Origin: an uncultured Clostridia bacterium
GTDB lineage: Bacteria > Bacillota > Clostridia > Christensenellales > UBA1242
Direction of reading: 5' to 3'
Assembly: GCA_947630405.1 (NCBI GenBank)
Contig: CANRHL010000001.1
Location: 20,822-84,821 of the forward strand
DNA length: 64,000 nucleotides
The position numbers were made by a program, and so were the translations under genes. The notes beneath the pieces were generated by a model. The model was given only the letters and a program-made list of their open reading frames with translations, ran no database searches and was not told the DNA's origin. Below are positions 1 through 41,245 of the stretch, piece after piece (positions within the stretch are counted from its first letter, which is position 1; each line of letters begins with the position of its first letter).

Positions 1-1
1 G

Positions 2-10
2 TGCTATAAT
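2..10 (+). promoter_or_regulatory. extended -10 element (TGcTATAAT) likely driving the trpS leader
   Basis: tgctataat at 2-10; the -35 would lie outside the window. Confidence 0.4.
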
Positions 11-38
11 AGTTATAACTTAAATAAAAGGAGTATAT

Positions 39-71
39 ATGTTTAATTCATTTATTTGGTGGCGCTGGTAA
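39..71 (+). CDS. 10-aa Trp-rich leader peptide MFNSFIWWRW (candidate trpS attenuation peptide)
   Basis: AAGGAG at 28-33, ATG at 39, TGG codons at 57-59, 60-62 and 66-68, TAA at 69-71. Too short for the ORF track; read directly from the sequence. Confidence 0.6.
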   Translation: MFNSFIWWRW

Positions 72-91
72 TTTTACACTTGCAAAATCGT

Positions 92-125
92 GTGTTTTGT
101 GAGTGTTTTTACGCATCACAAAACA
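92..125 (+). promoter_or_regulatory. leader hairpin whose 3' arm can alternatively pair into the downstream terminator
   Basis: tgttttgtga (93-102) pairs with tcacaaaaca (116-125). acaaaaca (118-125) is also complementary to tgttttgt (174-181) inside the terminator. Confidence 0.5.
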
Positions 126-163
126 TATAAATGGATTTAAATATTTTCAAAATAAATCTTAAG

Positions 164-208
164 CCCGTTGGTATGTTTTGTAGAAAACTTAATCAACGGG
201 TATTTTTT
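164..208 (+). terminator. intrinsic terminator (attenuator) just upstream of the trpS RBS
   Basis: cccgttg (164-170) pairs with caacggg (194-200), with an inner gtttt/aaaac stem, followed by tatttttt. Confidence 0.7.
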
Positions 209-227
209 ATCAAAAAGGAGATTTATT

Positions 228-1217
228 ATGAAAAAAGTTATACTTACTGGTGTTAGACCAAGCGGAAATCTAACACTTGGAAATTATTTGGGTGCAATTA
301 AAAACTTTGTGGACAGGCAAGAGCAATACGATAGTTATATATTTATTGCCGATTTGCACGCAATAACAAGCCCGAAAGACCCACAAAAATTAAAAGAAGC
401 AGTGTATAACTGCGTTGCTATGTATCTTGCGTGTGGTGTTGATCCAAAGAAAACGATTGTTTTTAAGCAAAGCGATGTGCTTGAACATGGAACACTTGGC
501 TTTATTATGACCTTTCAAACAAAAATGGGAGAACTCAGCCGCATGACACAATTCAAGCTGAAATCTCAACAACAAACAAAAGAAGGCGTTGACACAGGAT
601 TATTTGTCTATCCTACTCTTATGGTTGCGGACATACTGCTTTACAACACAAGCATTGTGCCTGTCGGAAAAGACCAACAGCAGCATGTTGAACTTACACG
701 AGATTTGGCAGAAAGATTTAATAAAAGATATGGGCAAACTTTCACTATGCCAGATGTTTATGTTGCGCCTGTGGGCAACAAAATTTTGAATTTGCAAAAT
801 CCACTTGAAAAGATGAACAAATCGGACAGTGGCGATAACAAAGGCACAATATTCTTAATGGACGACATTGAAGTTGCCAAAAAGAAAATTATGTCGGCAA
901 AGACAGACAACCTTGCTCATGTCCATTTTGACGAGGAAAATCAGCCCGGAATTTCAAATTTAATGAGCATTTTGTCAAAAATAACTGACGAGGACTTTGA
1001 AAGCATTGAAAAACGATACGAAGGCAAAGGCTATGGCGAATTTAAGAAAGAGGTTGCCGAAGTGGTTGCAAAGACTTTGGCAGAAATTCAAGCCAAATTC
1101 AAACAATTCAACAACAAAGATATGCTTGACAAAATCCTTTCAAATGGTGCAATAGACGCACAAAAAGTGGCAAGCCAAACATTAAAACGTGCCGCCAACG
1201 CATTAGGATTAAACTAA
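228..1217 (+). CDS. trpS: tryptophan--tRNA ligase
   Basis: MKKVILTGVRPSGNLTLGNYLG (HIGH-like region) and KMNKSDS (KMSKS-like). AAGGAG lies 7 nt upstream of the ATG at 228; the ORF-track start at 168 has no RBS. Confidence 0.95.
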   Translation: MKKVILTGVRPSGNLTLGNYLGAIKNFVDRQEQYDSYIFIADLHAITSPKDPQKLKEAVYNCVAMYLACGVDPKKTIVFKQSDVLEHGTLGFIMTFQTKMGELSRMTQFKLKSQQQTKEGVDTGLFVYPTLMVADILLYNTSIVPVGKDQQQHVELTRDLAERFNKRYGQTFTMPDVYVAPVGNKILNLQNPLEKMNKSDSGDNKGTIFLMDDIEVAKKKIMSAKTDNLAHVHFDEENQPGISNLMSILSKITDEDFESIEKRYEGKGYGEFKKEVAEVVAKTLAEIQAKFKQFNNKDMLDKILSNGAIDAQKVASQTLKRAANALGLN

Positions 1218-1240
1218 AATGGAGAGCAGTTGCTCTCTTC

Positions 1241-1314
1241 GGGCGAATAGTTTAATGGTAGAACAATAGTCTCCAAAACTATTGGCGTCAGTTCGATTCT
1301 GGCTTCGCCTGCCA
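1241..1314 (+). tRNA. tRNA-Trp (anticodon CCA)
   Basis: Cloverleaf: acceptor gggcgaa/ttcgcct, anticodon stem atagt/actat with loop ctCCAaa, T-arm gtcagttcgattctggc, encoded CCA end. Confidence 0.95.
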
Positions 1315-1333
1315 ATTTTTTTGCAAAAAAGTA

Positions 1334-1361
1334 TTGACTTTAAAAAAAAATATGCTAAAAT
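1334..1361 (+). promoter_or_regulatory. sigma-70 type promoter of the ThrRS-like leader
   Basis: TTGACT (1334-1339), 16-nt spacer ending in TGc, TAAAAT (1356-1361). Confidence 0.6.
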
Positions 1362-1383
1362 GTAAGTGTTAAGGAGCAAAACT

Positions 1384-1440
1384 ATGAAAAACGCATTGGT
1401 TTTACAACTTAATATAACCACCACCACCGTATCAAAATAG
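1384..1440 (+). CDS. 18-aa leader peptide MKNALVLQLNITTTTVSK with four consecutive ACC (Thr) codons
   Basis: AAGGAG at 1371-1376, ATG at 1384, ACC x4 at 1417-1428, TAG at 1438-1440. Below the ORF-track size cutoff. Confidence 0.6.
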   Translation: MKNALVLQLNITTTTVSK

Positions 1441-1480
1441 ATATGGTGTTTTGTGTGTGCAAAAAATAAAATAATATAAG

Positions 1481-1511
1481 GCAGCAACAAAACACAAAGT
1501 TGCTGCTTTTT
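1481..1511 (+). terminator. intrinsic terminator 1 of the ThrRS-like leader
   Basis: gcagcaac (1481-1488) pairs with gttgctgc (1499-1506), followed by ttttt. Confidence 0.65.
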
Positions 1512-1527
1512 AAATATTTAGACATTG

Positions 1528-1557
1528 GGCAGCAACTATAAAGGTTGCTGCCTTTTT
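1528..1557 (+). terminator. intrinsic terminator 2 of the ThrRS-like leader (same stem sequence as terminator 1)
   Basis: ggcagcaac (1528-1536) pairs with gttgctgcc (1544-1552), followed by ttttt. Confidence 0.7.
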
Positions 1558-1675
1558 GTTTAGGAGGGATTATGATTAAATTTGTAAAACTTAAAATTAT
1601 CACCCGAAAGGGTTATACTAAAAAATAAAACTAAAAAAAAACAAAAAATAAAAACAAAATAAAAAGGAGATTATT

Positions 1676-3124
1676 ATGGAAAACAAATTATTAAATAGAG
1701 AAGATATAGTTAAAGATATAAAAAAGGACTATTTCTTACTTTTGCCAAATGGCGAAGAAATTGCGTTAGATTTATCTAACAAAGAAGAAGTTTTAAATAA
1801 ACTAAATAAATATGGGTATGAAGAACTTATAGATTATGTAAAAGCGGAAGAATTGCCTGCCGAAGTTAAACCTGAAGCACCTTCCATTAAAGAGATGAAA
1901 AGGTTGGAACTTGCCGACAATGAAAGTGCAAGTGATAGCGGCAATCATAGAATGTACCCTAATGGGCAACTTATGTTCAGTTTAATTAAAGATTGGCAAG
2001 AACGCATTGCTAAATATGATTTAGGTGCAATGGAAATTGGCTCGCCACTTTTCTACAACAAAGCAGATGAGCAAATTTTAGCACAATGTGGCTCTTTTCA
2101 CGAAAGGCATTATTCGGTAAAAGTGCCAGATGACCCCAACAAAGAATTTATTTTGCGTTTTGCTGCCGACTTTGGCTTGTTTAAAATGGTGCAGCAAGCA
2201 AAATTTAGTTATAAGCAACTGCCATTAAGATTTTTTGAATATAGCGAAAATTTTAGATATGAAAAATCTGGCGAACTCTCTGGCTTAAAACGAGATAGAT
2301 TTTTCCATATGGCGGACATACACTGCTTTTGCAAAGATGAAGAACAAGCAATAGTGGAATATAAGGACATATTTAAAAAATATGAAAATTTAAACTCCGG
2401 TATGGGCATTAAATATGCAAATGTTTTGCGAATTGTTGATGTATTTTACAATAAATATAAACAAGACATTTTGGAATTAGTTAAGTACGCCAACCGCCCA
2501 TTGTTCATTGAAAGAATGGATAAAATGAAACATTATTGGGCAATGAAATCTGAGTGGCAATCAATAGATAGTGTACACGGCAACCAACAACTCTCTACTG
2601 TCCAATTTGATGTGAAAGAGGGCAAAGTTTATAACATTGTTTATGCTGACGAGAACGATGAAAAGAAAAATTGTGTAATTGTTCACTCGTCTGTTGGTGC
2701 GGTGGAAAGGTGTATGTATGCAATATTGGAAGAAGCACTTAAACTAGAACGCCCTGTACTTCCGCTATGGCTTTCACCCGTACAATTAAGAATTTTGCCC
2801 GTAAGCAACGAAGCGCACTTGAATTTTTGCGAACAACTAGATTTTGAAGGCATAAGGTTTGACATAGATGATAGAAACGAAAAACTAGGCAAAAAACTTG
2901 TCCGCGCAAGACAAGAGTGGATACCTTATGTTGTGGTTGTTGGGGATAATGAACTAAATGGTGCTAAATTTAAGGTTAATGATAGATTAAACAACCAAGT
3001 TTTAGAGATGAGCAAGGAAGAACTAGAAAACTTTATCTGCGAGCAAATTAAGAAATATCCATATAGGCCATTAGCATTGTCTAAATATTTAAGTAAACGC
3101 CCTTCATTCTATGGTGCGCTATAA
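1676..3124 (+). CDS. class IIa aminoacyl-tRNA synthetase, ThrRS-like catalytic core plus anticodon-binding domain, without the long N-terminal TGS/editing region
   Basis: Motif 2-like FRYEKSGELSGLKRDRFFHMADIHCFC; motif 3-like GAVERCMYAILEEA. C-terminal LPLWLSPVQLRILPV...DDRNEKLGKKLVRARQEWIPYVVVVGDNE resembles the ThrRS anticodon-binding domain. Only 482 aa. Confidence 0.75.
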   Translation: MENKLLNREDIVKDIKKDYFLLLPNGEEIALDLSNKEEVLNKLNKYGYEELIDYVKAEELPAEVKPEAPSIKEMKRLELADNESASDSGNHRMYPNGQLMFSLIKDWQERIAKYDLGAMEIGSPLFYNKADEQILAQCGSFHERHYSVKVPDDPNKEFILRFAADFGLFKMVQQAKFSYKQLPLRFFEYSENFRYEKSGELSGLKRDRFFHMADIHCFCKDEEQAIVEYKDIFKKYENLNSGMGIKYANVLRIVDVFYNKYKQDILELVKYANRPLFIERMDKMKHYWAMKSEWQSIDSVHGNQQLSTVQFDVKEGKVYNIVYADENDEKKNCVIVHSSVGAVERCMYAILEEALKLERPVLPLWLSPVQLRILPVSNEAHLNFCEQLDFEGIRFDIDDRNEKLGKKLVRARQEWIPYVVVVGDNELNGAKFKVNDRLNNQVLEMSKEELENFICEQIKKYPYRPLALSKYLSKRPSFYGAL

Positions 3125-3190
3125 AAAACCCTTTTCTACCCTATTTTTTACGAAAATTGCCAAAAATTAGAAAAATGTTCGATAAATCAC

Positions 3191-3219
3191 TTGACTTTTT
3201 CGAACAAATGTTCGATAAT
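3191..3219 (+). promoter_or_regulatory. promoter of the Com-like gene
   Basis: TTGACT (3191-3196), 17-nt spacer, GATAAT (3214-3219). Confidence 0.6.
3201..3214. promoter_or_regulatory. LexA (Cheo/SOS) box CGAACAAATGTTCG inside the promoter spacer
   Basis: Perfect CGAAC-N4-GTTCG palindrome. aaatgttcgataa is repeated at 3173-3185 and 3206-3218. Confidence 0.7.
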
Positions 3220-3318
3220 ATGAGTGATGATAGATATAAATATTCTTTAAGTTAGCCCCAGATAATGTAAAAGAAAAGAAAGTATTAAATGTCATCAAAC
3301 GCAAAAAGGAGGCGAAAA

Positions 3319-3516
3319 ATGCGTAAAGAATTTCGTTGCCCTTATTGTAATAAATTGGTGGGCATAACAAAAGAAGACGGAAAATCTATTGTAAAAGTGC
3401 TGCGGCGCGCACCAAGGAACAAATCTAACAATGAAACTATTTTCGAGAACAAATGTCCAAAGTGCAATAACCTAGTATATTTGCAATTTAGATTTTTACA
3501 AAACACAGGAACTTAA
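3319..3516 (+). CDS. small zinc-ribbon protein, Mu Com-like (RCPYCNKL ... KCPKCN)
   Basis: AAGGAGG RBS then ATG at 3319. Two CxxC pairs with the RCxxCNKL / KCPKC pattern I associate with Com-family proteins. Confidence 0.6.
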   Translation: MRKEFRCPYCNKLVGITKEDGKSIVKVLRRAPRNKSNNETIFENKCPKCNNLVYLQFRFLQNTGT

Positions 3517-3555
3517 AAAAGTTCATTTAGTTTAGGGGTCAAAGAATCCCATAGA

Positions 3556-3633
3556 GGCCATAATTAGAGCCCAACTGCTGTCATAGAACGGCAAATTAAA
3601 ACTTGTTTGGGAATTATGGTCTTTTTCTTTTTT
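3556..3633 (+). terminator. long-stem intrinsic terminator downstream of the Com-like gene
   Basis: ggccataatt (3556-3565) pairs with aattatggtc (3612-3621), with inner cccaa/ttggg, followed by tttttctttttt. Confidence 0.65.
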
Positions 3634-3810
3634 ATAAGACATAATTTGGCAAGATAAGTGGAATTTCTTAACTACAACACCTAGTAAAGGTGTTGTAAAA
3701 TTTTGGTGTAAGTTGTGGTAATTTACTCTCATTGAAAGAAAAAGGGGGAATTGCTATTAGACACCAACAAGAAATCATTATCTACCAATACTTTAATCTA
3801 TTTGAAAAGA

Positions 3811-3857
3811 CCTAATTTCAAATGGGGTTTACCCCGCCTTTTGAGATTAGGTTTTTT
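3811..3857 (+). terminator. strong intrinsic terminator within the ICE leader region
   Basis: 12-bp stem cctaatttcaaa / tttgagattagg enclosing gggg-ttta-cccc, followed by tttttt. Confidence 0.7.
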
Positions 3858-3895
3858 AATTGCCATATCCTAAAAAGTTTTTAAAAAAATTTTTT

Positions 3896-3920
3896 AATTG
3901 TAACAGGCATTGTTACAATT
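3896..3920. promoter_or_regulatory. perfect 10-bp inverted repeat (candidate operator) overlapping an extended -10
   Basis: aattgtaaca-ggcat-tgttacaatt. The right arm contains TGtTACAAT, upstream of the HTH gene. Confidence 0.5.
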
Positions 3921-3967
3921 AGCCCACTAAAATGTGGACTAGAAACTGATAAAAGGAGGTGATTGTA

Positions 3968-4306
3968 GTGCGAAGCAGATTTATACAAGACGCTATTCTT
4001 TCAATTCTGCAAGATGGCAAATTGCATAAAATGAAAGATTTGTGCGATGAACTTAATATCTGTCGAATGACGTGCGTAAGGCATATCAACGATTTGTCTT
4101 TGTACTACAATATCCAAACTTTTGTCGGTGGCAGCAAAGCAGGTGTAAGGTTGCTAGATAAGAAAATAGATATTACATATTTACAAGACAATGATCTGCA
4201 ACTCATTGTCGAGCAACTTGGGCGGTTGCAGAGCCCAAATCCAAATATCTCTAAATTTATTAGAAACCTTAACCGCTTTCTAAAAGGAGAGAAAAATGGA
4301 TTATGA
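3968..4306 (+). CDS. winged-helix/HTH DNA-binding regulator
   Basis: HKMKDLCDELNICRMTCVRHINDL HTH-like segment. GTG at 3968 sits 8 nt after AGGAGG; the track start at 3959 overlaps the RBS. Confidence 0.6.
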   Translation: MRSRFIQDAILSILQDGKLHKMKDLCDELNICRMTCVRHINDLSLYYNIQTFVGGSKAGVRLLDKKIDITYLQDNDLQLIVEQLGRLQSPNPNISKFIRNLNRFLKGEKNGL

Positions 4307-4956: not shown

Positions 4957-5397
4957 ATGAAAGAACATTACACAGTTAGAATTTATGACAAGCAACTGTC
5001 GGACAAAGTTGAAGGCCTATATAATAAATGTAAAGATTTATATTCTAGTCAAAATCCATTTTTAGTGGATTGCATTAGCAGGGGTGCGGAACTTATAGAA
5101 CACGATTTAGTTGGCGAGAATAAGAAAAACACAATTGCTTCCTTATATGATGAAATTCATTTAACTGTTAGGAAATTGGACAATCTTTTAAAACTTTGTG
5201 AAAAGAGTGCAAAAGAAACGATTGCCAACTTGTCAATCAATCAAAAACTTTTGTCTTGCAATTACAATATGCTTTTAGGATTGTCGGAAAACAACCCAAA
5301 ACCTAAAAACTTTATTGAAAATGGTATGTTTGATGATTTGCCAGAAAGATTAGGCGAATTATTGGAAGATATACTTAAACAAATTTTAGGGAAATGA
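4957..5397 (+). CDS. hypothetical protein, possible relaxosome accessory factor (by position only)
   Basis: Good RBS; its stop overlaps the relaxase start (ATGA at 5394-5397). Confidence 0.5.
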   Translation: MKEHYTVRIYDKQLSDKVEGLYNKCKDLYSSQNPFLVDCISRGAELIEHDLVGENKKNTIASLYDEIHLTVRKLDNLLKLCEKSAKETIANLSINQKLLSCNYNMLLGLSENNPKPKNFIENGMFDDLPERLGELLEDILKQILGK

Positions 5398-6584
5398 GTG
5401 TTCCTAATGTAAACTTTTTCATTGGATATGTGGATAGTTTAAAAGGGAAAAGCAGCGCAGATGAATATGTAAAGAATAATTTTGAAGCAAGACGATTTTA
5501 CAGCTCTGGTAAAGATTATGATTATGTTAAGTATGTAGCCACAGGTAGCAAAGAAAAACTTGATTATATTGCCTATTCTGGGAACAATGAGAAAAGCCAC
5601 GGAATATTTAACCCTAATGGGTTAATGTCGGCACAAGATATAAAAGAATTACGCAATAAATTAAGGAAAACTGCTAGTCCTATATGGCACGGTGTTATTT
5701 CGTTTACGGAAGATTTTGGAAATCAATTTTGCGACAATTATGAGAAAGCTTATGAGCTTATGAGAACTGAATTCCCTAAATTTTTTAAGGCGGCAGGACT
5801 AAACCCAGACAATATTGAGTGGTTTGCAGGTTTACACGAGAACACGGACAACAAGCATATACATTTTTCTTTCTTTGAAAAGACCCCTTTAAGAAAGAAA
5901 CAAAATAGTAAAAAATTATGCTATTCAAATGGATTTATAGTGCAAAAAGCAATAAATGATTTTAAAGTTAAGGTAGAATTGCGCCTTAAAAACTACACAA
6001 ACGATATTTCAATAGCAAGAAAAAGTATAACACGGACAACTGAAAAATTATTAAACACAGGAGATTATATGGAGAAATTAAAATCTCTAATCATTATTCT
6101 ACCCCGCAAAGGTAGAATGAGTTATGATAGCAAAAATATGCAAGAATATAGACCATATATAGATAGTATTATAAACACTATAATTAAAGCAAATAAGAAC
6201 TTAAAATACAAGTTTGACAATTTCTATGACCTATTGGGCAAAAGGGACAATCAAATTATTCAGGCATACACAAAATTAAAAATAGATTACACGGACAAAC
6301 TTATGCGAGATAAATGTATTAAAGACATTTATAGGCGTTTGGGCAACCTAGTTTTGTTTATGGCAAAAGAAATTCGAGCCGAGCAAGCAAAACTTGATAC
6401 CAACACAAGAAACCGCCTTTTACAAAAACGCATAGACAAGTTAAAGAGAAAAGCACTAATTAAAAAATGTATGCAATTAAATGACCTTGTTGACCAAGAA
6501 ATTATGAACGCATTTAAGGAATATTTGGACAAACTTGATGAAGCCAACTATAACCGATTAAAGGAAGAAGGGTTAATAGATTGA
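5394..6584 (+). CDS. conjugative relaxase (MobL/MOB-P-like, histidine triad)
   Basis: WHGVISF and LHENTDNKHIHFSF (HxxxxxxHxH metal motif); Tyr-rich N-terminus DYDYVKYV / LDYIAY. Confidence 0.7.
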   Translation: MSVPNVNFFIGYVDSLKGKSSADEYVKNNFEARRFYSSGKDYDYVKYVATGSKEKLDYIAYSGNNEKSHGIFNPNGLMSAQDIKELRNKLRKTASPIWHGVISFTEDFGNQFCDNYEKAYELMRTEFPKFFKAAGLNPDNIEWFAGLHENTDNKHIHFSFFEKTPLRKKQNSKKLCYSNGFIVQKAINDFKVKVELRLKNYTNDISIARKSITRTTEKLLNTGDYMEKLKSLIIILPRKGRMSYDSKNMQEYRPYIDSIINTIIKANKNLKYKFDNFYDLLGKRDNQIIQAYTKLKIDYTDKLMRDKCIKDIYRRLGNLVLFMAKEIRAEQAKLDTNTRNRLLQKRIDKLKRKALIKKCMQLNDLVDQEIMNAFKEYLDKLDEANYNRLKEEGLID

Positions 6585-8746
6585 AATTAGGTAAAAGGAT
6601 TATCTTAATTCTTATAACCTTATTTGCTTGTTATATATGTGGTTATTTATTAAATTTATTTGTTTCTAACAATTTTGTTTTTGAATTTAAAATATCTGTG
6701 GACTTAATGTTGGCAGGCAAAACCCTACTCTACACCTTTGAATTGTTTGCGGTATTTGCGGTTATTTACTTATTCATTTGGTTTAAAGGAATTGGCAAAA
6801 ACCCTAAAAAGATTTTGCAAGCAAATGAAAAGGATAAAGACATTTTCACAGGATTAGAACAAGCACATTTTCAAACAGATAAAGAAATTCAAAACAATTT
6901 TAGAACGATAGATTACGAAAATCTACCCAACGCAAAAATTGAAGGTATTGCAATTAAGACGGAAGAAACCAACAAAGGATACAAAGTTACATTTGCTAAC
7001 CCTGCCCACACTTTGATAATAGGAACAACGGGCTCTGGTAAAACAACCACCTTTATAAACCCAACCATACAAATATTGGCAAATACCTTTAATCAACCTT
7101 CTATGATTATTTCAGACCCAAAAGGGGAATTGTATGCGCTACACTCTAAAAGTTTGATAAAACGCGGATACGATGTAAGAATATTGGATTTAAGAAACCC
7201 TTATTGCTCATTAAGGTGGAATCCGTTAGAACACCCTTATGACCTATACCAAGAAATGCTAACTTTAAATGATAAAGTTATTTTGAACGAAGAAGAAGGT
7301 TATTTCATATTTGAAGGCAAGATTTATTACAGCGAAGAAGAAAAGAACGCTGCGGTGCAGGTGCGACAACAAGAAATCTTTGATGAAGTGTACGAAGATT
7401 TAAACGATATTTGTTCGGTGCTTTGCCCTATTAAAAATAAATCCGAGCCAATATGGGAAAGTGGTAGTAAAAACTTTATTTTGGCAATAGCACTTGCTAT
7501 GTTGGAAGATAGCGAAAACCCTAGTTTGGGTATGACAAGAGAAAAATTCAATTTCTACAACATAATGAAAATTGCCACTAACACGCAAAACGATTGTGAA
7601 GATTTAATGGCGTACTTTAAAAATAGAAGCCCAATTTCTAAAAGTGTTAGTTTGTCTAAACAAGTTTTAGACGCTAGTGATAAAACGCGCGGCTCATATC
7701 TATCTACAATCTTTGATAAATTGTCAATGTTTAGTGATATGAGTATTTGTTCGCTAACAAGTGCAAACGAAATAGATTTTAGCGAATTGCCAAATAAACC
7801 AACTGCCCTATTTTTGCAAATACCAGATGAAAAAGAAACACGCCATACACTTGCTGCTATGGTTATATTGCAAGCATATAAGGCACTTGTAGCAAAGGCA
7901 AACACCTATGCCGATTTAACTTTGCCGCGTAGTGTTTACTTTTTGTTAGACGAATTTGGTAACCTACCTAAAATTCACAAACTAGAACAAATGATTACGG
8001 TTGGCAGAAGCAGAAAAATATGGTTGGCGTTAGTTGTTCAATCTTATGCACAACTTGCAAAAGTTTATGATGACAAAACTGCCGACATTATAAAATCCAA
8101 CTGCAATATTCAAGTATTTATTGGTACAACTGACCTTAAAACAATAGAAGAATTTTCTAAAAAGTGTGGAAATTACTCTATTATGCAACGAAATGTAAGC
8201 TTTTCTTCTTCTAACGATAATGTTGGAAGTTCGGTAAGCATTAAGGAAAGACCACTAATCTACCCAACCGAATTGCAACAACTAAATAGCCCAGACAATA
8301 TGGGCAATGCAATAGTTAATGTATTTGGTTATCCACCAATTAAAAGCAAATATACACCAAGTTTTAAATGCAAACACTTCAACTTGGAAAAGACCAATCA
8401 ATTACTTTCGGAGGGCAAATATTTTAACGAAAAGAAAGTTTTATACAATATGCTAGACCGAAATGAGATTATCCTTTCAAATAAAGCAGGTGTGCCAATG
8501 CCAGATTTAGCACCATTTATTGAAAGTTTAATAATTCAAATTGAAAAACTAGATTTTGAAAGTTTAGGTTGCTTTGAATTAAAAATGGAAATGCTTAATG
8601 CGGTGGAAAAGAAAGATTTTAATAGATTAAGTAATATAGCAATTAAACTAGAAACCATTGCAAAAAACAGAAATAGCGAGGACTTTGCATTTGTTAAAAA
8701 CTTATGCGTAAAAGTTCAGCAGCTAAAAAGGTTGGCACGACAATGA
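6581..8746 (+). CDS. type IV coupling protein (VirD4/TraG family)
   Basis: N-terminal TM helices; Walker A GTTGSGKTT; Walker B YFLLDEFGNL; VVQSYAQL. Confidence 0.9.
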   Translation: MKLGKRIILILITLFACYICGYLLNLFVSNNFVFEFKISVDLMLAGKTLLYTFELFAVFAVIYLFIWFKGIGKNPKKILQANEKDKDIFTGLEQAHFQTDKEIQNNFRTIDYENLPNAKIEGIAIKTEETNKGYKVTFANPAHTLIIGTTGSGKTTTFINPTIQILANTFNQPSMIISDPKGELYALHSKSLIKRGYDVRILDLRNPYCSLRWNPLEHPYDLYQEMLTLNDKVILNEEEGYFIFEGKIYYSEEEKNAAVQVRQQEIFDEVYEDLNDICSVLCPIKNKSEPIWESGSKNFILAIALAMLEDSENPSLGMTREKFNFYNIMKIATNTQNDCEDLMAYFKNRSPISKSVSLSKQVLDASDKTRGSYLSTIFDKLSMFSDMSICSLTSANEIDFSELPNKPTALFLQIPDEKETRHTLAAMVILQAYKALVAKANTYADLTLPRSVYFLLDEFGNLPKIHKLEQMITVGRSRKIWLALVVQSYAQLAKVYDDKTADIIKSNCNIQVFIGTTDLKTIEEFSKKCGNYSIMQRNVSFSSSNDNVGSSVSIKERPLIYPTELQQLNSPDNMGNAIVNVFGYPPIKSKYTPSFKCKHFNLEKTNQLLSEGKYFNEKKVLYNMLDRNEIILSNKAGVPMPDLAPFIESLIIQIEKLDFESLGCFELKMEMLNAVEKKDFNRLSNIAIKLETIAKNRNSEDFAFVKNLCVKVQQLKRLARQ

Positions 8747-14148: not shown

Positions 14149-15531
14149 ATGAATTGGCTAACAGATTGGATTTTTGAACTTTTGTATGGTTTTCAAAAGA
14201 CAATTTGTTATATCATTGATTTCATTAGAGAAATCTTTTACACTCTTGCAGGAATTAAGACAGTTAATATTGAAGGGGAACAAACTGATTTACTTTCACA
14301 CTTTGTTCTGTCCGACACGGTTAAAACAACTTTCTTTTACATTTTCTTAATAGCTATTGTTTTGCTAGTTGTATTTGTTTTGGTGGCAATTATACGAAGC
14401 GAATATGCAAATGGCGAGAATAAAAAATCCAAGACATTGATTTTGGGTAAGGCATTTCAAAGTTTTTTGATATTCTTGCTTGTGCCTTTTATTTTAATTG
14501 CCGGCATAACACTTACAAATGTTATAATGTCCGCCATAAATGCTAGTATGAATCCTTACACTCTACAAGCAGGCGGACAAGCAACAATAGGTGGACAAAT
14601 ATTGGTTACTTGCGGACAATATGCCTTTATTGGAGATGCTGGCAGCAGGGCTGAAATTGAACGAATGTTCTTAACCGGCGAATTAAGTTATTTTGATATA
14701 AATGTTGTTAGTCAATACTATAACTTGCGAAGCTTGGACTTTTTAATTGGTATTGTTGGCTCGGTTGTGATAATGGTTATGTTTGTTATGAGTGCAATAA
14801 CATTTATACAAAGAATATTTGATATTGTGCTTTTGTATATCATATCCCCTATTAGCGTAAGTACAATTCCCGTAGATGATGGTAACAGATTTAGAATTTG
14901 GCGTGATATGACAATATCAAAAGTTTTGGGTGCTTATGGCATTATTTTGTCTATGAATTTATTTTTCATCATTATGCCACAAATACAAGCAATAACTTTC
15001 TTTGATAACGCGTTTAAAAATGGAATTGTGCAAATTTTGTTCTTAATTGGTGGTGCGTTTGCGGTTACAAAAGCAAACTTGGTTATTGCACAACTAACAG
15101 GCAATCAAGCAGGCAACAACGAAACACAACAACTTATTCGCAATATTCAAACGGGCGGCAACATTGTCAAATCCACTGTGGGTGCAGGGGTTATGGCAGG
15201 TGGCGCGCTATTAGGTGGCAAAAGGTTTGTGGACACTAAAAAGACCACTCGTTCGTTTGCAAGTGGGTTTAAAAACTCATTTACTACTCCACCTAGCAAA
15301 AGTTATCTAAACAAAGAACACCCAAGTAAGATAGCACAAATTGGTGGGCTTCCTACAAGAATAGCAACAATGCCAATAGGTATGATAAAAGATTTTGCAT
15401 CTGGCGGTATTGTTGGTGTTGGTAAGAACTTTATACCACGTGCTAGAAATGTATTAAGTGGAGATAGCATTATCAACCACGCACAAGGTAAACCAACTTC
15501 AAAGGAGCATATTGATGAGAATAATTCCTAA
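14149..15531 (+). CDS. polytopic membrane protein, VirB6/TrbL-like channel component
   Basis: Multiple TM helices and a Gly-rich C-terminal tail, immediately upstream of VirB4. Confidence 0.55.
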   Translation: MNWLTDWIFELLYGFQKTICYIIDFIREIFYTLAGIKTVNIEGEQTDLLSHFVLSDTVKTTFFYIFLIAIVLLVVFVLVAIIRSEYANGENKKSKTLILGKAFQSFLIFLLVPFILIAGITLTNVIMSAINASMNPYTLQAGGQATIGGQILVTCGQYAFIGDAGSRAEIERMFLTGELSYFDINVVSQYYNLRSLDFLIGIVGSVVIMVMFVMSAITFIQRIFDIVLLYIISPISVSTIPVDDGNRFRIWRDMTISKVLGAYGIILSMNLFFIIMPQIQAITFFDNAFKNGIVQILFLIGGAFAVTKANLVIAQLTGNQAGNNETQQLIRNIQTGGNIVKSTVGAGVMAGGALLGGKRFVDTKKTTRSFASGFKNSFTTPPSKSYLNKEHPSKIAQIGGLPTRIATMPIGMIKDFASGGIVGVGKNFIPRARNVLSGDSIINHAQGKPTSKEHIDENNS

Positions 15532-18136
15532 AAATACAAAAGTTAAAATAAAATTTTATAAAGATATAGGAATATATGACATAGTTTTAGCAGGCATAGC
15601 ATTGGCATTTATTGCCCTATTTGTTTCTAGCAATTTGCCTAACAAATATATGTTTGCAATTGGTGTTTTGGCTATTGTTGCACCTATGTATATTCCTTTG
15701 GGTGATATAAAACTTTATCAAGCAGTTGGTTATGGGATTAAGTTTGGCATTGCACAAAAAACCTTTTTAAAAAAGAAAAAGGGAAACAATCATATTAGTG
15801 TTATTGTGCCTTACTCCACAATTAAAGAAAATTTAATTGTTCAAAAAGACCATACGCTTACAGGCGTGATAGAAGTTAAACCCATTGAATTTAACTTATT
15901 AAGCGAAAATAAGCAAAATCATTTGATTGATGGTGTTATTTCTTCGACACTCAAAAATGTTGGCGTGTTGCAAGAATATGACTTAATAAAGTTGGATAAA
16001 CCTATCATTTTTGATAGTTATTTGAAAAATGAACTAACGCGCATACAAAAACTTATTGCAGAAAATGAAAATAACAATTTAAAGGAAGATGAGTTTAGAA
16101 AGCGAGTTGAAATTATAGAAGATAGAATAAACTTAATAGATAGTTTAAATTCAAATGAAAAGATTTATGCTAGTGCTTATTACATAGCAATACACGATAT
16201 TGATAAAAGAAGTTTAAATAATACACTAGATATTATAGAGCAAACATTAAAGAACAATAATTTAGAGGCAAAAAGGTTAAACAACAAAGAACTAGCAATA
16301 TTTTTGAAATATTCTTATGATAAAGATTTTGACGAACGAGAGTTTGATAAAATTGAAGAAAAAGATTATATAAGGCATATATACCCTAACTCTGTTCAGT
16401 TTAAAACCCTATCCACAAAACAAAATGACAAAACTTTAACGCATTTTATAATAACTGACTATCCACTAAAAGTGGATAATGCTTGGGGACAAGATTTATT
16501 CAATATTCCTAACACAAAAGTTGTTATGAAAGCAAAACCTGTGGATAAATACAAGGCCATTAAAAGAATAGATAACGCAATAAACGAGTTAATGTCGCAA
16601 AACACATTAGGCAAAGCAAGCTCTCAAATTGACAAGCAAACACATTTGGAAAGTTTGCAAATGTTGTTAGAGGGATTGCAAAATGATAATGAGGTATTTT
16701 TTGACATTACAATGATAATAACAGCTTATGACAAAGGAAAGGAAACCACAAATAAAAAATTTGTTAGAAGAAAGTTAAGAGAAATGGGTTTTAAATTTAG
16801 CGAAATGTTTGGCAGACAAATTGAAAGTTATTTTTCTTCAAATATCAACACTTACAACAAAACAAAAATATCACGAGGGATAAATTCTTCTTCAATTGCG
16901 GCGGCGTTCCCATTTGTTAGCAATGCAATATTAGATGACAATGGTTTGTTAATAGGCGAAAACCAACTACCTACTTTTGTGGACTTTTTTAGGCGAGATG
17001 ATGAACGAGTAAATTCAAACACGGTTATTATTGGCAAATCTGGTAGTGGAAAATCTTATGCAACAAAAATGTTGTTAGCAAACTTGGCAAGTGATAACGC
17101 AAAAGTGTTTATCCTAGACCCAGAAAACGAATATGGAACTTTGGCAAGCAATTTGTGTGGAAAAGTTTTAGATGTTTCATCTTCAAAATATGGAAGAATA
17201 AACCCATTTCATATAATAATGAGTTTAGACGATGAAAACCAAGATGGCAGCAACAACTCTTTCTACTCTCACTTGCAGTTTTTGGAAGAATTTTTTAGGT
17301 TAATCCTAGAAGGCATAAATGCGGATAGTTTGGAACTTTTAAATAAAGTTATTGTAGATGTATATAACAAAAAAGGAATTACACCTAAAACAGATTTAAC
17401 CACATTAAAGGCAAAGGACTACCCTATATTCCAAGATATTGCCGAAGAAATAGACAATAGGATTACAAGAGAAAAAGATGAGTACAATTTGTCCTGCTAT
17501 AAAGTTTTAGCAAACTATATGAGCAAATTTAGGCGTGGTGGTAGAAATTCTGCCCTATGGAACGGATTTACTACTTTTAACCCAACTGAAAATTTTGTTT
17601 GTTTCAACTTTCAAAAACTATTAGCAAATAAGAACAACCTTATTGCCAACGCACAAATGCTTTTAGTTTTAAAATGGTTAGACAACGAAGTTATTAAAAA
17701 TAGAGATTACAATTTGCTTAATGGAACTGAAAGAAAAATTGTTATAGCAATAGATGAAGCGCACGTGTTCATTGATGAAAAATTCCCTATTGCGTTAGAT
17801 TTTATGTATCAACTTGCAAAACGCATAAGGAAATACAATGGTATGCAAATTGTTATTACTCAAAACATTAAAGATTTTGTTGGTAGCCCAGAGATAGCAC
17901 GCAAATCTTCCGCAATTATAAATGTAAGCCAATATTCATTTATCTTTTCGCTTTCGCCAAATGATATAACTGACCTTTGCGCTTTGTATGAAAAGGCAGG
18001 ACAAATAAACGAAAACGAAACGGACAATATTGTAAACTTGCCGCGCGGAAGTGCTTTTTTAATTACAGGCCCAGCAAATAGGACAAATATTAGAATTGTG
18101 GCAACCCCACAAATTAAACAATTATTTGAAAATTAG
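15515..18136 (+). CDS. VirB4-family conjugation ATPase with N-terminal VirB3-like TM segment
   Basis: AAGGAG then ATG at 15515. Walker A GKSGSGKSY; Walker B IAIDEAHVF. Confidence 0.9.
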   Translation: MRIIPKNTKVKIKFYKDIGIYDIVLAGIALAFIALFVSSNLPNKYMFAIGVLAIVAPMYIPLGDIKLYQAVGYGIKFGIAQKTFLKKKKGNNHISVIVPYSTIKENLIVQKDHTLTGVIEVKPIEFNLLSENKQNHLIDGVISSTLKNVGVLQEYDLIKLDKPIIFDSYLKNELTRIQKLIAENENNNLKEDEFRKRVEIIEDRINLIDSLNSNEKIYASAYYIAIHDIDKRSLNNTLDIIEQTLKNNNLEAKRLNNKELAIFLKYSYDKDFDEREFDKIEEKDYIRHIYPNSVQFKTLSTKQNDKTLTHFIITDYPLKVDNAWGQDLFNIPNTKVVMKAKPVDKYKAIKRIDNAINELMSQNTLGKASSQIDKQTHLESLQMLLEGLQNDNEVFFDITMIITAYDKGKETTNKKFVRRKLREMGFKFSEMFGRQIESYFSSNINTYNKTKISRGINSSSIAAAFPFVSNAILDDNGLLIGENQLPTFVDFFRRDDERVNSNTVIIGKSGSGKSYATKMLLANLASDNAKVFILDPENEYGTLASNLCGKVLDVSSSKYGRINPFHIIMSLDDENQDGSNNSFYSHLQFLEEFFRLILEGINADSLELLNKVIVDVYNKKGITPKTDLTTLKAKDYPIFQDIAEEIDNRITREKDEYNLSCYKVLANYMSKFRRGGRNSALWNGFTTFNPTENFVCFNFQKLLANKNNLIANAQMLLVLKWLDNEVIKNRDYNLLNGTERKIVIAIDEAHVFIDEKFPIALDFMYQLAKRIRKYNGMQIVITQNIKDFVGSPEIARKSSAIINVSQYSFIFSLSPNDITDLCALYEKAGQINENETDNIVNLPRGSAFLITGPANRTNIRIVATPQIKQLFEN

Positions 18137-30569: not shown

Positions 30570-30779
30570 ATGAAAAGTTATGAATTATGCAAATGTATGT
30601 TTACTGAATATCCAGATTGCGTTGGTGTGCAAGAACTTATGCAAATGTTGGGTATAAAGAAAACAAAAACTTATGAATTGCTACAAAGTGGAGAAATAAA
30701 AGCAAAAAAGATTGGAAAAGATTATAAAATTTCAAAAGTAAATGTTATTGCCTACATAATTGGAGAAGAACAATTATGA
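30570..30779 (+). CDS. xis: excisionase-family HTH DNA-binding protein
   Basis: 69 aa, VGVQELMQMLGIKKTKTYELLQSGEIKAKKIG; its stop overlaps the int start (ATGA). Confidence 0.75.
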   Translation: MKSYELCKCMFTEYPDCVGVQELMQMLGIKKTKTYELLQSGEIKAKKIGKDYKISKVNVIAYIIGEEQL

Positions 30780-32035
30780 CAGGTAGATTGGCATTAAAAA
30801 ATGGTTTATGGTATGCAGTTTTAAGTTATAAAGATGAAAACAACCAATTTAAGCAAAAATGGATAAATACTCATTTAAAAGAACGCGGAAATAAAAAAGA
30901 AGCTCAAAAGATTTTAAATGAACAACTGCAAACATTTAATCCACACGAAGAAAAACCAAAACAAAATGAAACTAAAACCGAAGATATACTTTTAGTTGAC
31001 TATGTCGAAAAAGTTTTTAATGAAAAAAGCAGCAGTTTAAGCCCTATAACAGCTAGTGCTTATGAATCAATAATTAAAATTATCAAATTATATTTCAAAG
31101 ATGATTTGCTAAAAGATATAACCTATAAAGATATTGAAAGGTTTTATGATTATTTAAGATATGAACGCAAAGTTGGCAACACCACTGTAAAACATTACGC
31201 CAATGTTCTATCCCCTGCTTTTAGACAAGCATATAGAGATGATTTAATCCCTAAAAACCCTTTTGAATTTCTACCTAAAATTAAAAGAGATAAGCGGAGT
31301 ATTGAATTTTACAATAAAAATGAATTGGAAAAACTTTTTCAATATACCGACAACACTGATATTGGTTTGATAGTTAGAATAGCAGCATATTATGGATTTA
31401 GGCGAAGTGAAGCACTTGGACTTAAATGGAAAGCAATAGATTTTGACGCAAAAACCATAAAGGTTGAACACAAAGTTGTAAAAGTTAAGAAAATATTATA
31501 TAGGCAAAATAAACTTAAAACGGAAGCGAGCTCACGAACTTTGCCTTTAATACCAGAAATTGAACAATTATTACTCCAACGAAAGAAAGAAATTGAAAAA
31601 AACAAGACATTGTATGGAAAATCTTACAACGATAAATACAATGAATATATTTTTGTAAATGATATTGGTGATTTGATGTTGCCAGACCACATTACGCAAA
31701 AATTTAACAGAATATTAAAGCAAAACAAGTTAAAACATATTCGTTTTCACGATTTAAGACATAGTTGTGCGAGTTTACTTGTTGCGAACAATGTTCCTAT
31801 GAAAAACATACAAGAGTGGTTAGGACACGCAAATTTCAATACAACCGCCGATGTATATTCACATTTGGACTTTTCTGGGAAAGTTAAATCTGCTAATATT
31901 ATAGAAGCTCAATTGTCGGTGGGTGTTGAAGATGAAAAAGAGTTAGAAAGGGAAATTGAAGAACTAAAAAAGAAAATTCGTGAGAAAGAACAATTAAAAA
32001 AAGCTTTAAAACTTAAAGACAATGAAATGAACTAG
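30776..32035 (+). CDS. int: site-specific tyrosine integrase
   Basis: N-terminal arm-binding type domain (LWYAVLSYKDENNQFKQKWI); YGFRRSEALGLKW, KTEASSRTLPL, FHDLRHSCAS, LGHANFNTTADVYSH. Confidence 0.95.
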   Translation: MTGRLALKNGLWYAVLSYKDENNQFKQKWINTHLKERGNKKEAQKILNEQLQTFNPHEEKPKQNETKTEDILLVDYVEKVFNEKSSSLSPITASAYESIIKIIKLYFKDDLLKDITYKDIERFYDYLRYERKVGNTTVKHYANVLSPAFRQAYRDDLIPKNPFEFLPKIKRDKRSIEFYNKNELEKLFQYTDNTDIGLIVRIAAYYGFRRSEALGLKWKAIDFDAKTIKVEHKVVKVKKILYRQNKLKTEASSRTLPLIPEIEQLLLQRKKEIEKNKTLYGKSYNDKYNEYIFVNDIGDLMLPDHITQKFNRILKQNKLKHIRFHDLRHSCASLLVANNVPMKNIQEWLGHANFNTTADVYSHLDFSGKVKSANIIEAQLSVGVEDEKELEREIEELKKKIREKEQLKKALKLKDNEMN

Positions 32036-32320: not shown

Positions 32321-32397
32321 TGGTGCACCCAGAGGGATTCGAACCCCCGGCCTCCGCGTCCGTAGCGCGGCGCTCTATCCAGCTGGGCTATGAGTGC
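32321..32397 (-). tRNA. tRNA-Arg (anticodon ACG)
   Basis: Reverse complement GCACTCA TA GCCCAGCTGGATAGAGC G CCGCG CTACGGA CGCGG AGGCC GGGGGTTCGAATCCCTC TGGGTGC A CCA. Confidence 0.95.
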
Positions 32398-32426: not shown

Positions 32427-32494
32427 GGGGAAATATCAAACCCCTGCTCACAAGTTCCGTAGACCAACGCTCTATCCAGCTGAGCTATGAACGC
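32427..32494 (-). pseudogene. 5' two-thirds of a second tRNA-Arg(ACG)-like gene lacking a 3' acceptor strand
   Basis: GCGTTCA TA GCTCAGCTGGATAGAGC ... CTACGGA ... AGGGG-10 nt loop-CCCCT, then TAAAAAA where TGAACGC would be needed. Confidence 0.45.
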
Positions 32495-37200: not shown

Positions 37201-38280
37201 ATGAAAATAACATCAGTTGAACTTAAAAATTTTAGAAATTATTCGGGGTCTAAAATCGAATTTAGTGATGGTTTAAATTTTATTGTTGGTGCAAACGCGC
37301 AGGGCAAAACTAATTTGCTTGAAAGCATTTATCTAACTAGCGTTGGCAAAAGCCCAAAGCACGTTAAAGATAAACAAATTATAAAATTTAACGAAACTGC
37401 TGGCAAAATAGACCTTAATTTTTTAACCAATTCGGGTAGCAAAAACATAAAAATTTATTTGGATAAACTCAACAAAAAATCCATTAAAGTTAACAACCTT
37501 AATGTGCTTAAATTAACTGAACTTGTTGGCACACTTTCAGTTGTTTATTTTAGCCCAGACGAACTAAAATTAATTAAGGAAGTGCCAGAAGATAGACGCA
37601 CATTTTTAGATATTTCAATTAGCCAATTCGACAAAAATTACCTTTATAATTTGCTAAAATACGACAAAATTTTGCGTCAGCGCAACACTCTACTTAAAAG
37701 TGCAGATAGCATTGTGTCGAAAAAAGAACAACTAAATTTGTTCACTCCACAACTCATTGAAACGGCGGAAAAAATAATTTTAAAACGGCTTGAATTTGTC
37801 GAAAAACTGAAAGCCGAAGCCACAAAAATTCACAGCATTATAACCGAAAATGAAATGCTTAACATTGAATATAGTTATAAAAAAACTGACCTTTCAATTA
37901 AAGAAGATTTACAAAATCAGTTTAATAAAAATTTGGATAAAGAGCTTGAACTTGGCTTTACGCTTATTGGCCCACACAGAGATGATTTGGAGTTTTCAAT
38001 AAATAACACCGATGCCAAACTTTATGCAAGCCAGGGCCAGCAGCGAACTATTGCGCTTGTTGTTAAACTTTCGCTTATGGAGGTTATTAAAAAAGAAATT
38101 GGCGAATATCCGGTGCTGCTATTAGATGACGTTTTAAGTGAACTAGATAATTCAAGGCAAAATAAATTAATAGAGTTTGTAAATAAATTTCAAACTTTAA
38201 TAACCTGCACGCAAATTCCAAACATAAATTTGCCATATAACACAATTAAAATTGAAAACGGTAGTGTAAAAACATGCTAA
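37201..38280 (+). CDS. recF: DNA replication and repair protein RecF
   Basis: MKITSVELKNFRNY...GANAQGKTNLLESIY (Walker A), SQGQQRT signature, LLLDDV. Confidence 0.9.
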   Translation: MKITSVELKNFRNYSGSKIEFSDGLNFIVGANAQGKTNLLESIYLTSVGKSPKHVKDKQIIKFNETAGKIDLNFLTNSGSKNIKIYLDKLNKKSIKVNNLNVLKLTELVGTLSVVYFSPDELKLIKEVPEDRRTFLDISISQFDKNYLYNLLKYDKILRQRNTLLKSADSIVSKKEQLNLFTPQLIETAEKIILKRLEFVEKLKAEATKIHSIITENEMLNIEYSYKKTDLSIKEDLQNQFNKNLDKELELGFTLIGPHRDDLEFSINNTDAKLYASQGQQRTIALVVKLSLMEVIKKEIGEYPVLLLDDVLSELDNSRQNKLIEFVNKFQTLITCTQIPNINLPYNTIKIENGSVKTC

Positions 38281-38330
38281 ATTTAATTTACTAAACATAA
38301 AAATTTTGTATAATAAAAATAGGAGGAATT

Positions 38331-39359: not shown

Positions 39360-39365
39360 CCACTT

Positions 39366-40712: not shown

Positions 40713-41170
40713 AGCATTCTCCTAATGTTTATTATAGTAAAAAATTTTTAATTGTCAAACTAATCTACAATTTTTTTATAATAATCTCGCCCGTTTTAAT
40801 TTTAATAATGCCGGCGGTCATAAAAAAAGTTATGCACCCATATTTTTTAGTTAACAACAGTTTTAACGGATTTATTAACATCTTAATCACAACTAATGTG
40901 CATAAGTTTTGTTGTGAATATGCCAATTTTTGCCAATATATAGTGCTATTTTGGCGGGGTAAAAAAGTTATCCACTTTTCCACACTCTTTAATAAAAAAA
41001 TCATTATCAAAAAAATAAAAAATAAATTAATAAATAAATTCGCGCGAAAATCGATGAAAATACTATTTTATAGTATTTTTGGCCTATTTTTTGAAAATTA
41101 TAAATATAAAATATTTATAGCATAAAAAGTTGAAAAAAATTTTGCAAATTTTTACAAAATATTTTAATTT
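40713..41170. other. probable oriC: DnaA-box cluster plus AT-rich unwinding region between divergent dnaA and dnaN
   Basis: TTATGCACC (40830-40838), tgtgcataa (40897-40905, reverse TTATGCACA), tgtgaatat (40913-40921), TTATCCACT (40968-40976), TTTTCCACA (40976-40984), then a very AT-rich 40990-41160. Confidence 0.6.
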
Positions 41171-41173
41171 TGT

Positions 41174-41202
41174 TTGACATATACGGGCGCTTTTGCTAAT
41201 AT
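41174..41202 (+). promoter_or_regulatory. dnaN promoter
   Basis: TTGACA, 17 nt, TAATAT. Confidence 0.6.
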
Positions 41203-41245
41203 GTTGTTGTATCATAGATACGTTAGGGGTTTAAAAGGACAAACG

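Follow-up and report, generated by a model that had tools for sequence, protein, structure and literature searches.

A probable leader-peptide attenuator with a decoy hairpin upstream of trpS in an uncultured Clostridia bacterium

The DNA analyzed here is a 64,000-nucleotide (nt) stretch from an uncultured Clostridia bacterium (GenBank assembly GCA_947630405.1, contig CANRHL010000001.1, positions 20,822–84,821 of the forward strand), which is referred to in its full length as the window. Its first 227 nt precede trpS, and region 2–227 is very probably a ribosome-mediated (leader-peptide) transcription attenuator tying trpS to the supply of charged tRNA-Trp, as judged from sequence comparison and folding. 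The class of mechanism is assigned with high confidence, the detailed relay with moderate confidence. A preliminary description of the window, made from its letters alone, had proposed a ribosome-mediated attenuator rather than a T-box riboswitch, and had suggested an alignment of related trpS upstream regions as a check. That proposal is strengthened by the alignment, in which the mini open reading frame (ORF) with adjacent or closely spaced Trp codons is conserved in 36 relatives and the RNA helices carry compensatory changes, by the lack of a T-box match in the window and in the loci of the relatives, and by cognate leaders in front of thrS and tyrS. The elements of the leader and the genes following it are given below (RBS, ribosome-binding site; SD, Shine-Dalgarno).

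2–10, + strand: extended −10 promoter (TG-n-TATAAT), TGCTATAAT, read directly
28–33, + strand: RBS of the leader ORF (AAGGAG), read directly; strong in nearly all relatives
39–71, + strand: leader ORF MFNSFIWWRW-stop of 10 codons, with ATG at 39 and TGG at 57–59, 60–62 and 66–68
46–65, + strand: segment 1, within the leader ORF and including UGGUGG; partner 113–136
76–88, + strand: segment A, 5′ arm of the A:B hairpin, starting 5 nt past the leader stop codon
93–110, + strand: segment B, UGUUUUGUGAGUGU, a near copy of segment D that includes the conserved U-run 106–110; partner A or C
112–137, + strand: segment 2 (C and C′); partners are the leader ORF, B, or the 5′ half of the terminator (antiterminator)
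152–160, + strand: anti-SD stretch, AUAAAUCUU, complementary to the trpS RBS region 218–226
163–208, + strand: intrinsic terminator, with lower stem 163–172/192–201, upper stem 175–179/184–188 and U-tract 203–208
215–220, + strand: trpS RBS, read directly
228–1217, + strand: trpS (tryptophan–tRNA ligase, 329 aa; TIGR00233, 349 bits), the gene predicted to be regulated
1241–1314, + strand: tRNA-Trp (CCA), 24 nt past trpS, with no obvious terminator between the two

Promoter and leader ORF

For comparison, one genome per species was scanned, which gave about 40 loci with a TrpRS 70–88% identical, all from gut or rumen metagenome-assembled genomes (MAGs) labelled Clostridia, Eubacteriales, 'Bacilli' or Candidatus Caccovivens. 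The leader set consists of 36 species-level relatives and the window, and the resulting alignment (A1) contains 37 sequences. A promoter of the form TTGACa/t-17-TATAAT is present at the equivalent site in 35 of the 36 relatives, with its −10 element ending 23–33 nt upstream of the leader ATG. As the promoters of the relatives occupy the equivalent place, region 2–10 of the window is assigned as a −10 element, and by the same comparison its −35 element would lie just beyond the window edge.

All 36 relatives, like the window, contain a translatable mini-ORF with its own start codon and, in nearly all of them, a strong RBS. The mini-ORF is 10–12 codons long, lies 177–260 nt upstream of trpS and has the consensus M-F-N/S-S-F-I-W-W-R-x. 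Two Trp codons are present in every one of them, either adjacent (WW, 34 relatives) or split by one codon (LWIW, L029 and L030), in keeping with the tandem cognate codons of a classical attenuator. These codons keep a fixed register relative to segment A, which starts 16 nt beyond the first base of Trp codon 8, while the flanking codons vary. The third Trp codon of the window (66–68) is not conserved; other members have K, R, L, I, V, Y, S or Q in its place, and synonymous changes (TTT/TTC, ATT/ATC and CGT/CGC/CGA) occur in the leader codons among the relatives. The regulatory codons are the UGG UGG at 57–62 (codons 7–8), cognate to trpS. The preliminary description had located all of these elements correctly, including the TGcTATAAT at 2–10, the AAGGAG, the ATG at 39, the peptide MFNSFIWWRW and the TGG triplets at 57, 60 and 66.

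A divergent T-box that senses uncharged tRNA-Trp directly, the mini-ORF being incidental, is the least probable of the alternatives and can be credited with hardly any likelihood, although trpS is controlled in this way in Bacillus and many Firmicutes (PMC1262725) and the UGGUGG of the leader superficially recalls the T-box sequence. As the preliminary description had expected, the Rfam T-box model RF00230 finds no match at gathering score in the 64 kb window and none at E ≤ 10 in 1–1700, and neither a T-box nor any other Rfam cis-regulator was found in the window or in 272 kb of the relatives' loci. By covariance model, the region contains no Stem I, specifier loop, T-box sequence or antiterminator bulge. 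Moreover, the UGGUGG lies within a translated ORF with a strong RBS, of which both the frame and the position of the stop codon are conserved. The whole element spans only some 190 nt, every part of which is explained by a model of five segments.

Alternative helices and their covariation

The RNA of 17–228 folds 5.5 standard deviations better than its dinucleotide shuffles. Support for individual helices was taken from the RNAalifold consensus and from explicit pair counts over A1, with slid partners as controls, which gave 34–58% paired over all helices tested. The helix between the leader ORF and segment 2 (L:C, 46–65/113–136) is the RNAalifold consensus helix, with about 95% of the cells paired and six compensatory pairs, and it corresponds to the anti-antiterminator overlapping the regulatory codons in a classical attenuator. 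The A:B helix (76–88/94–106) comprises 13 base pairs (bp) followed by a conserved U-run, with 97% of the cells paired and four compensatory pairs, while the B:C helix (93–105/112–125) has 92% of the cells paired and three compensatory pairs. In L008 and L017, A, B and C are changed jointly in such a way that both A:B and B:C are preserved. B:C includes a perfect 10-bp inverted repeat, 93–102 (TGTTTTGTGA) with 116–125 (TCACAAAACA), which can be read directly and which the preliminary description had already recognized.

The antiterminator consists of 118–128/171–181 and 130–134/165–169, and is 96.9% paired across the 37 sequences, compared with 34–53% in the slid controls. Its pair C119–G180 is replaced by U–A in L024, L037 and L046, and the remaining changes are wobble-compatible. 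The complementarity between 118–125 and 174–181 pointed out in the preliminary description is real but longer than proposed, as it extends beyond the upper stem of the terminator to the G+C-rich lower stem (130–134 with 165–169). Altogether, the antiterminator has 16 nt in common with the terminator 5′ arm, and thus shows the sharing of bases expected of a classical attenuator. The calculated energies are −12.1 kcal/mol for A:B, −17.1 for B:C, −16.9 for the terminator, −10.8 for the C:D duplex and −15.2 for the L:C duplex.

Segments B (AUGUUUUGUGA) and D (UAUGUUUUGU) nearly repeat each other, and B therefore probably acts as a decoy for segment 2. The 1:2/2:3/3:4 scheme of the preliminary description holds as far as the alternative pairings are concerned, but 93–102/116–125, which it had taken as 1:2, is more plausibly a decoy pairing, in which segment 2 is trapped once the ribosome has reached the stop codon. 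Its reservation that the Trp codons lie 25–35 nt upstream of segment 1 can be dropped, as they lie inside segment 1 (46–65), paired with 113–136.

Terminator and the translational layer

An intrinsic terminator lies between the leader ORF and the gene, as in classical attenuators. Downstream of its hairpin (163–201; calculated energy −16.9 kcal/mol), the sequence continues as U A UUUUUU up to 208. The lower stem is paired in 93% of the cells and has five compensatory pairs, which occur in up to 14 sequences. The terminator at 164–208 in front of trpS, as given in the preliminary description, is thus upheld with slightly wider limits, and trpS starts with the ATG at 228, not at 229. A simple terminator scan did not list 164–208, owing to an internal loop and an apical part above the 3–8 nt loop limit of the scan.

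The terminator 5′ flank could also sequester the trpS RBS, in which case control would be mainly translational, with the leader ORF as a modulator and termination as a secondary effect. A 9-bp pairing of 152–160 with 218–226 is indeed present in the minimum free energy (MFE) fold of the window, and the anti-SD complementarity, scored by a duplex test for each sequence since gaps prevented scoring by alignment column, is better than shuffles (z < −2) in 15 of the 37 members, with visible co-changes, making it common and not universal. However, the pairing is absent or weak in the other 22, whereas almost all members have the antiterminator and a terminator stem with U-tract, and mainly translational control is accordingly considered unlikely. 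The anti-SD pairing is best seen as a layer added to the putative attenuator and not as an alternative to it.

In Bacillus subtilis the trp genes are controlled by TRAP, and Escherichia coli ThrRS regulates its own synthesis by binding its own mRNA. A protein of either kind (a TRAP-like protein or TrpRS itself) might likewise bind the leader RNA and select between terminator and antiterminator, the mini-ORF not being the sensor. This is highly improbable for the present leader. A TRAP target comprises nine to eleven (G/U)AG repeats spaced by 2–3 nt, while 1–227 contains just five scattered GAG/UAG triplets without any repeat array, and a mimic of a tRNA anticodon arm is not apparent. A binding protein would also leave unexplained the conserved RBS, start codon, WW codons and the stop codon at a fixed distance from segment A.

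Ribosome position and the proposed switch

The equilibrium fold of the full-length leader consists of B:C and the terminator, regardless of which part of the ORF is masked, and the antiterminator never appears in it. The switch would therefore have to be kinetic. When the leader is masked and the RNA is folded as successive prefixes, which imitates co-transcriptional folding, A:B together with the antiterminator is the MFE structure from position 183 to 196, until the 3′ arm of the terminator emerges. Mutually exclusive structures, which the preliminary description had proposed to look for by folding, are hence found as B:C with the terminator at equilibrium and as A:B with the antiterminator in the masked prefix folds.

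Ribosome positions were simulated by prefix folding with masked leaders on all 37 sequences, at the decision point before the 3′ arm of the terminator. When the A site holds Trp codon 7 or 8, with protection of +11 to +15 nt (limits taken from general knowledge), A:B and the antiterminator form in 37/37 sequences. Two codons beyond the Trp codons the outcome is mostly B:C, and at the stop codon the B:C decoy forms in 31–34 and the antiterminator in 3–6 of the 37. Without a ribosome, A:B forms in 33, L:C in 23 and the antiterminator in only five. That codons 7–8 are fixed and codon 10 is not can be explained by the position of segment A, which starts just past the predicted front edge of the stalled ribosome.

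Based on these simulations and on the conserved helices, the attenuator is proposed to operate as follows. Transcription would start about 7 nt past the −10 element, a ribosome would load onto the 10-codon leader ORF, and the outcome would be set by its position when RNA polymerase arrives at the terminator; the polymerase may pause at the A:B hairpin and its U-run. When Trp-tRNA is scarce, the ribosome would stall on Trp codon 7 or 8 and cover segment 1, with its front edge short of A (76), so that A:B would form and lock the decoy away, leaving segment 2 (118–134) free for 165–181. The occupied 165–181 could not enter the terminator, and trpS would be transcribed. When Trp-tRNA is plentiful, the ribosome would reach the stop codon and cover A, the free B would capture the emerging segment 2, and 165–181 would be left free for the terminator, which would end transcription at about 205–208. 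If no ribosome is present, the leader ORF would pair with segment 2 and A with B, and the terminator would form as well. In many members, the 5′ flank of the terminator is predicted to pair with the trpS RBS, which may add a translational layer.

Several points weigh against this reading. Segments B, C and D are almost invariant, and the direct covariation of the antiterminator consists of one position in three related sequences in addition to wobble-compatible changes. Folding at equilibrium never switches, so that the model hangs on kinetic co-transcriptional folding, as is the case in known attenuators. The A:B hairpin with its U-run resembles a weak terminator, which would defeat the switch if it were efficient. 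The conserved MFNSF N-terminus could in principle mean a function at the level of the peptide and not RNA pairing. Finally, the footprint limits are of general origin and do not come from the host organism.

The tRNA-Trp gene downstream of trpS may be co-transcribed with it, and would then be under the same attenuator. The order trpS followed by tRNA-Trp is also found in L001 and L035.

Variants of the scaffold and other cognate-codon leaders

In the following loci, the RNA scaffold known from the Trp attenuator carries different regulatory codons (HHH, RRRR, WHH and WHWH).

L027, 2217–2432, − strand: leader MVYSFVLLHHHR with HHH; downstream gene of the TIGR00725 family
L110, 1427–1679: leader MFNSFTCWRRRR with RRRR; downstream deacylase of the ArgE/DapE family
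L184, 10062–10286: leader MFNSFNMWHHK with WHH; downstream deacylase of the ArgE/DapE family
L149, 58–315, − strand: leader MFNSFNMWHWHN on the Trp-attenuator scaffold
L182, 823–1018: leader MFNSFILWHHDS on the Trp-attenuator scaffold; short contig

L027 shares segments B, C and D and the terminator segments with the Trp version, and its His codons CAUCAUCAU are matched by a complementary AUGAUGAU in segment 2, with an L:C duplex of −22.6 kcal/mol. This suggests, within a small sample, that the scaffold of L027 has been retargeted by a swap of codons. Among the matches listed in a pattern scan of metagenomes for the B...C core, most are chance hairpins and about eight are true members.

The Trp leader precedes trpB in L026, L034 and L144, and trpS follows trpB in L026 and L034. 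Where the leader precedes trpB-trpS, one putative attenuator is placed over both the synthesis and the charging of Trp. In L025, as in L026 and L034, trpS directly follows trpB; no leader was found for L025, and the leader of L144 stands before trpB only.

Leaders with other cognate codons are present in front of two other aminoacyl-tRNA synthetase (aaRS) genes.

1334–1558, + strand: second putative attenuator, in front of thrS, with a TG-extended promoter at 1334–1361 and an RBS at 1371–1376
1384–1440, + strand: Thr leader ORF, MKNALVLQLNITTTTVSK, with four ACC Thr codons at 1417–1428
1480–1488/1499–1507 and 1527–1553 with U-run, + strand: hairpin and terminator of the Thr leader, with 1:2/2:3/3:4 logic
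1676–3124, + strand: thrS, an archaeal-type ThrRS without N-terminal editing domain, regulated by the Thr leader (predicted)
L044, 4640–4990: Tyr leader, MKKLFANNSYYYYYI (YYYYY), with 1:2/2:3/3:4 hairpins and a terminator before tyrS
L044, 4987–6216: tyrS (TIGR00234, 384 bits)

Thr-rich leaders are also located upstream of thrS in relatives with 91–60% ThrRS identity. A blind scan of DNA of the lineage for a mini-ORF with RBS, codon run and terminator found essentially only these cognate-codon leaders.

The leader peptide might alternatively be a nascent-chain arrest peptide, similar to TnaC or the Erm leaders, with free tryptophan or a drug as the signal. Stalling would then be due to the peptide sequence instead of a shortage of Trp-tRNA, and would operate the same RNA switch. 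The MFNSF N-terminus is unusually conserved, even in the variants with His or Arg regulatory codons, and thus lends this possibility some credit. However, the peptide has just 10–12 residues, the residues past WW vary freely, and the conserved codons 3–9 are exactly those pairing with segment 2, with compensatory changes in the RNA. The regulatory codons also match the downstream genes (Trp for trpS and trpB, Thr for thrS, Tyr for tyrS and RRRR for the ArgE-like gene), as is predicted by sensing of codon supply and not by a fixed arrest motif. Sensing of free Trp would, moreover, give the opposite logic for trpS. Arrest peptides of the TnaC type are about 24 residues long, share conserved W, D and P, stall at the stop codon and act through Rho-dependent termination, while the present leaders have no conserved D or P and are followed by an intrinsic terminator. 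An arrest peptide is therefore quite improbable, and a leader read for its Trp codons is preferred.

With regard to thrS itself, the best NCBIfam match of the window ThrRS is PRK03991 (residues 150–613), and its nearest homologues outside the lineage are from DPANN-type archaea. Region 1563–1628, between the Thr terminator and thrS, holds a second small ORF with its own RBS and an ATG at 1572, encoding MIKFVKLKIITRKGYTKK. This ORF contains a stable tetraloop hairpin, ACCC-GAAA-GGGU (1602–1613), which is kept in the relatives and reads ACCC-UUCG-GGGU in L207, where the peptide is changed. This suggests that 1602–1613 is a conserved RNA element.

Comparison with known attenuators

Leader-peptide attenuation is a textbook mechanism. 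The present leader resembles E. coli trpL (RF00513) in its short ORF with tandem Trp codons near the end, its 1:2/2:3/3:4 pairings, its intrinsic terminator and its terminated default state when untranslated. Unlike trpL, it gives no match to the Rfam Trp_leader model RF00513 at E ≤ 10 in 1–1700, and it would regulate an aaRS gene and not biosynthesis. It also has an extra A:B hairpin inside the 1:2 loop, with a 3′ arm that nearly repeats segment 3 and is a probable decoy for segment 2, and a ribosome at its stop codon is predicted to mask A and not segment 2.

The his leader of Salmonella and E. coli is a relay of six segments (A–F) with seven His codons, and pheST of E. coli is an aaRS operon under leader-peptide attenuation. 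The present element shares a relay of more than four segments with the former and the predicted control of an aaRS gene with the latter. Both of these are, however, proteobacterial and unrelated in sequence, and the his leader has no duplicated decoy copy of its antiterminator target.

Known aaRS genes behind leader-peptide attenuators are pheST of gamma-proteobacteria and, in Streptomyces, trpS and leuS (PMC1262725). In S. lividans, alaS, thrS, trpS and leuS have been put forward as genes of this type (PMC8079986). As in the window, the leader peptides of Streptomyces contain cognate codons, precede aaRS genes including trpS and thrS, and raise the synthetase when charged tRNA is scarce. Unlike the present leader, they belong to high-G+C Actinobacteria, many of them are on leaderless transcripts, their sequences are unrelated, and several lack a clear U-tract terminator (PMC8079986). 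Some of the genes regulated there are second copies (trpS2 of S. avermitilis, PMC1262725), while the trpS of the window looks like a housekeeping copy.

His-leader attenuators of his operons have been predicted in some Firmicutes (PMC9413887). They show that classical attenuation occurs in lineages of this phylum from which the usual regulator is missing, but they control biosynthetic operons and not aaRS genes. A comparative study of 2005 assigned most aaRS genes of Firmicutes to T-box control and none to classical attenuation (PMC1262725). The literature searched contained no account of leader attenuators at aaRS genes of Firmicutes; its coverage is incomplete and gives no proof of absence. 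As a functional analogue, the T-box (RF00230) also senses the charging of a specific tRNA, governs the choice between terminator and antiterminator at aaRS genes and is retargetable by one codon. It differs in that it binds the tRNA directly and needs no translation, and its defining structures are absent here.

Genomic context

The window is chromosomal, as dnaA (39366–40712, − strand), dnaN and recF are present. These genes (recF, dnaA on the − strand, and dnaN) occupy 37201–42343, and the window therefore probably adjoins the chromosomal replication origin.

A conjugative element extends from about 3200 to 32400. It encodes an extracytoplasmic function (ECF)-like sigma factor, a MobP2 relaxase (5394–6584), VirD4 (6581–8746), proteins of 1471 aa and 1923 aa, and a VirB4 (15458–18136) similar to that of the Mycoplasma integrative and conjugative element. 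Its tyrosine recombinase (integrase, 30776–32035) adjoins a tRNA-Arg (32321–32397). Attachment-site repeats flanking the element were looked for and none was found. The 55 nt of 32436–32490 are 75% identical to part of the adjoining tRNA-Arg, and could represent what is left of a tRNA or an additional tRNA not called by ARAGORN.

Carriage of trpS and thrS as cargo of this adjoining element, comparable to auxiliary drug-resistant synthetases, was considered and rejected. The trpS-leader units of the relatives occur in diverse chromosomal contexts without a conjugative element, and are thus not cargo of the mobile element; the same is true of thrS. Linkage of trpS and thrS as a trait of the lineage was rejected as well, as close relatives have no thrS after trpS and the adjacency is specific to the window. 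A search of 1–4000 against a phage database gave a tRNA match only, and a search for a protein identical to the TrpRS of the window gave no match.

Biological implications

The lineage, made up of uncultured low-G+C Clostridia of gut and rumen, is tentatively proposed to have exchanged T-box control of its aaRS genes (at least trpS, thrS and tyrS) for leader attenuators, one of them on a modular decoy scaffold retargeted by joint swaps of codons and segment 2 (Trp before trpS or trpB, HHH before the TIGR00725-family gene and RRRR before the ArgE-like gene), a proposal for which doubt still slightly outweighs confidence. If true, such swaps would be a translation-dependent counterpart of specifier swapping in T-boxes. 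The pattern of leaders across the lineage deserves a genome-wide survey, and the layout with a decoy hairpin is unusual.

The Trp leader is a compact element of about 190 nt with a sharply placed switch, in which two codons decide the outcome in silico. As it has no Rfam match, it would be a new element for annotation pipelines to recognize in MAGs. Its unusual decoy hairpin and the natural codon-swapped variants may make it a convenient system for studying how the position of a ribosome is converted into a choice of RNA fold. A gut lineage using cognate-codon leaders for trpS, thrS and tyrS would imply that the T-box and the leader peptide are interchangeable solutions in evolution.

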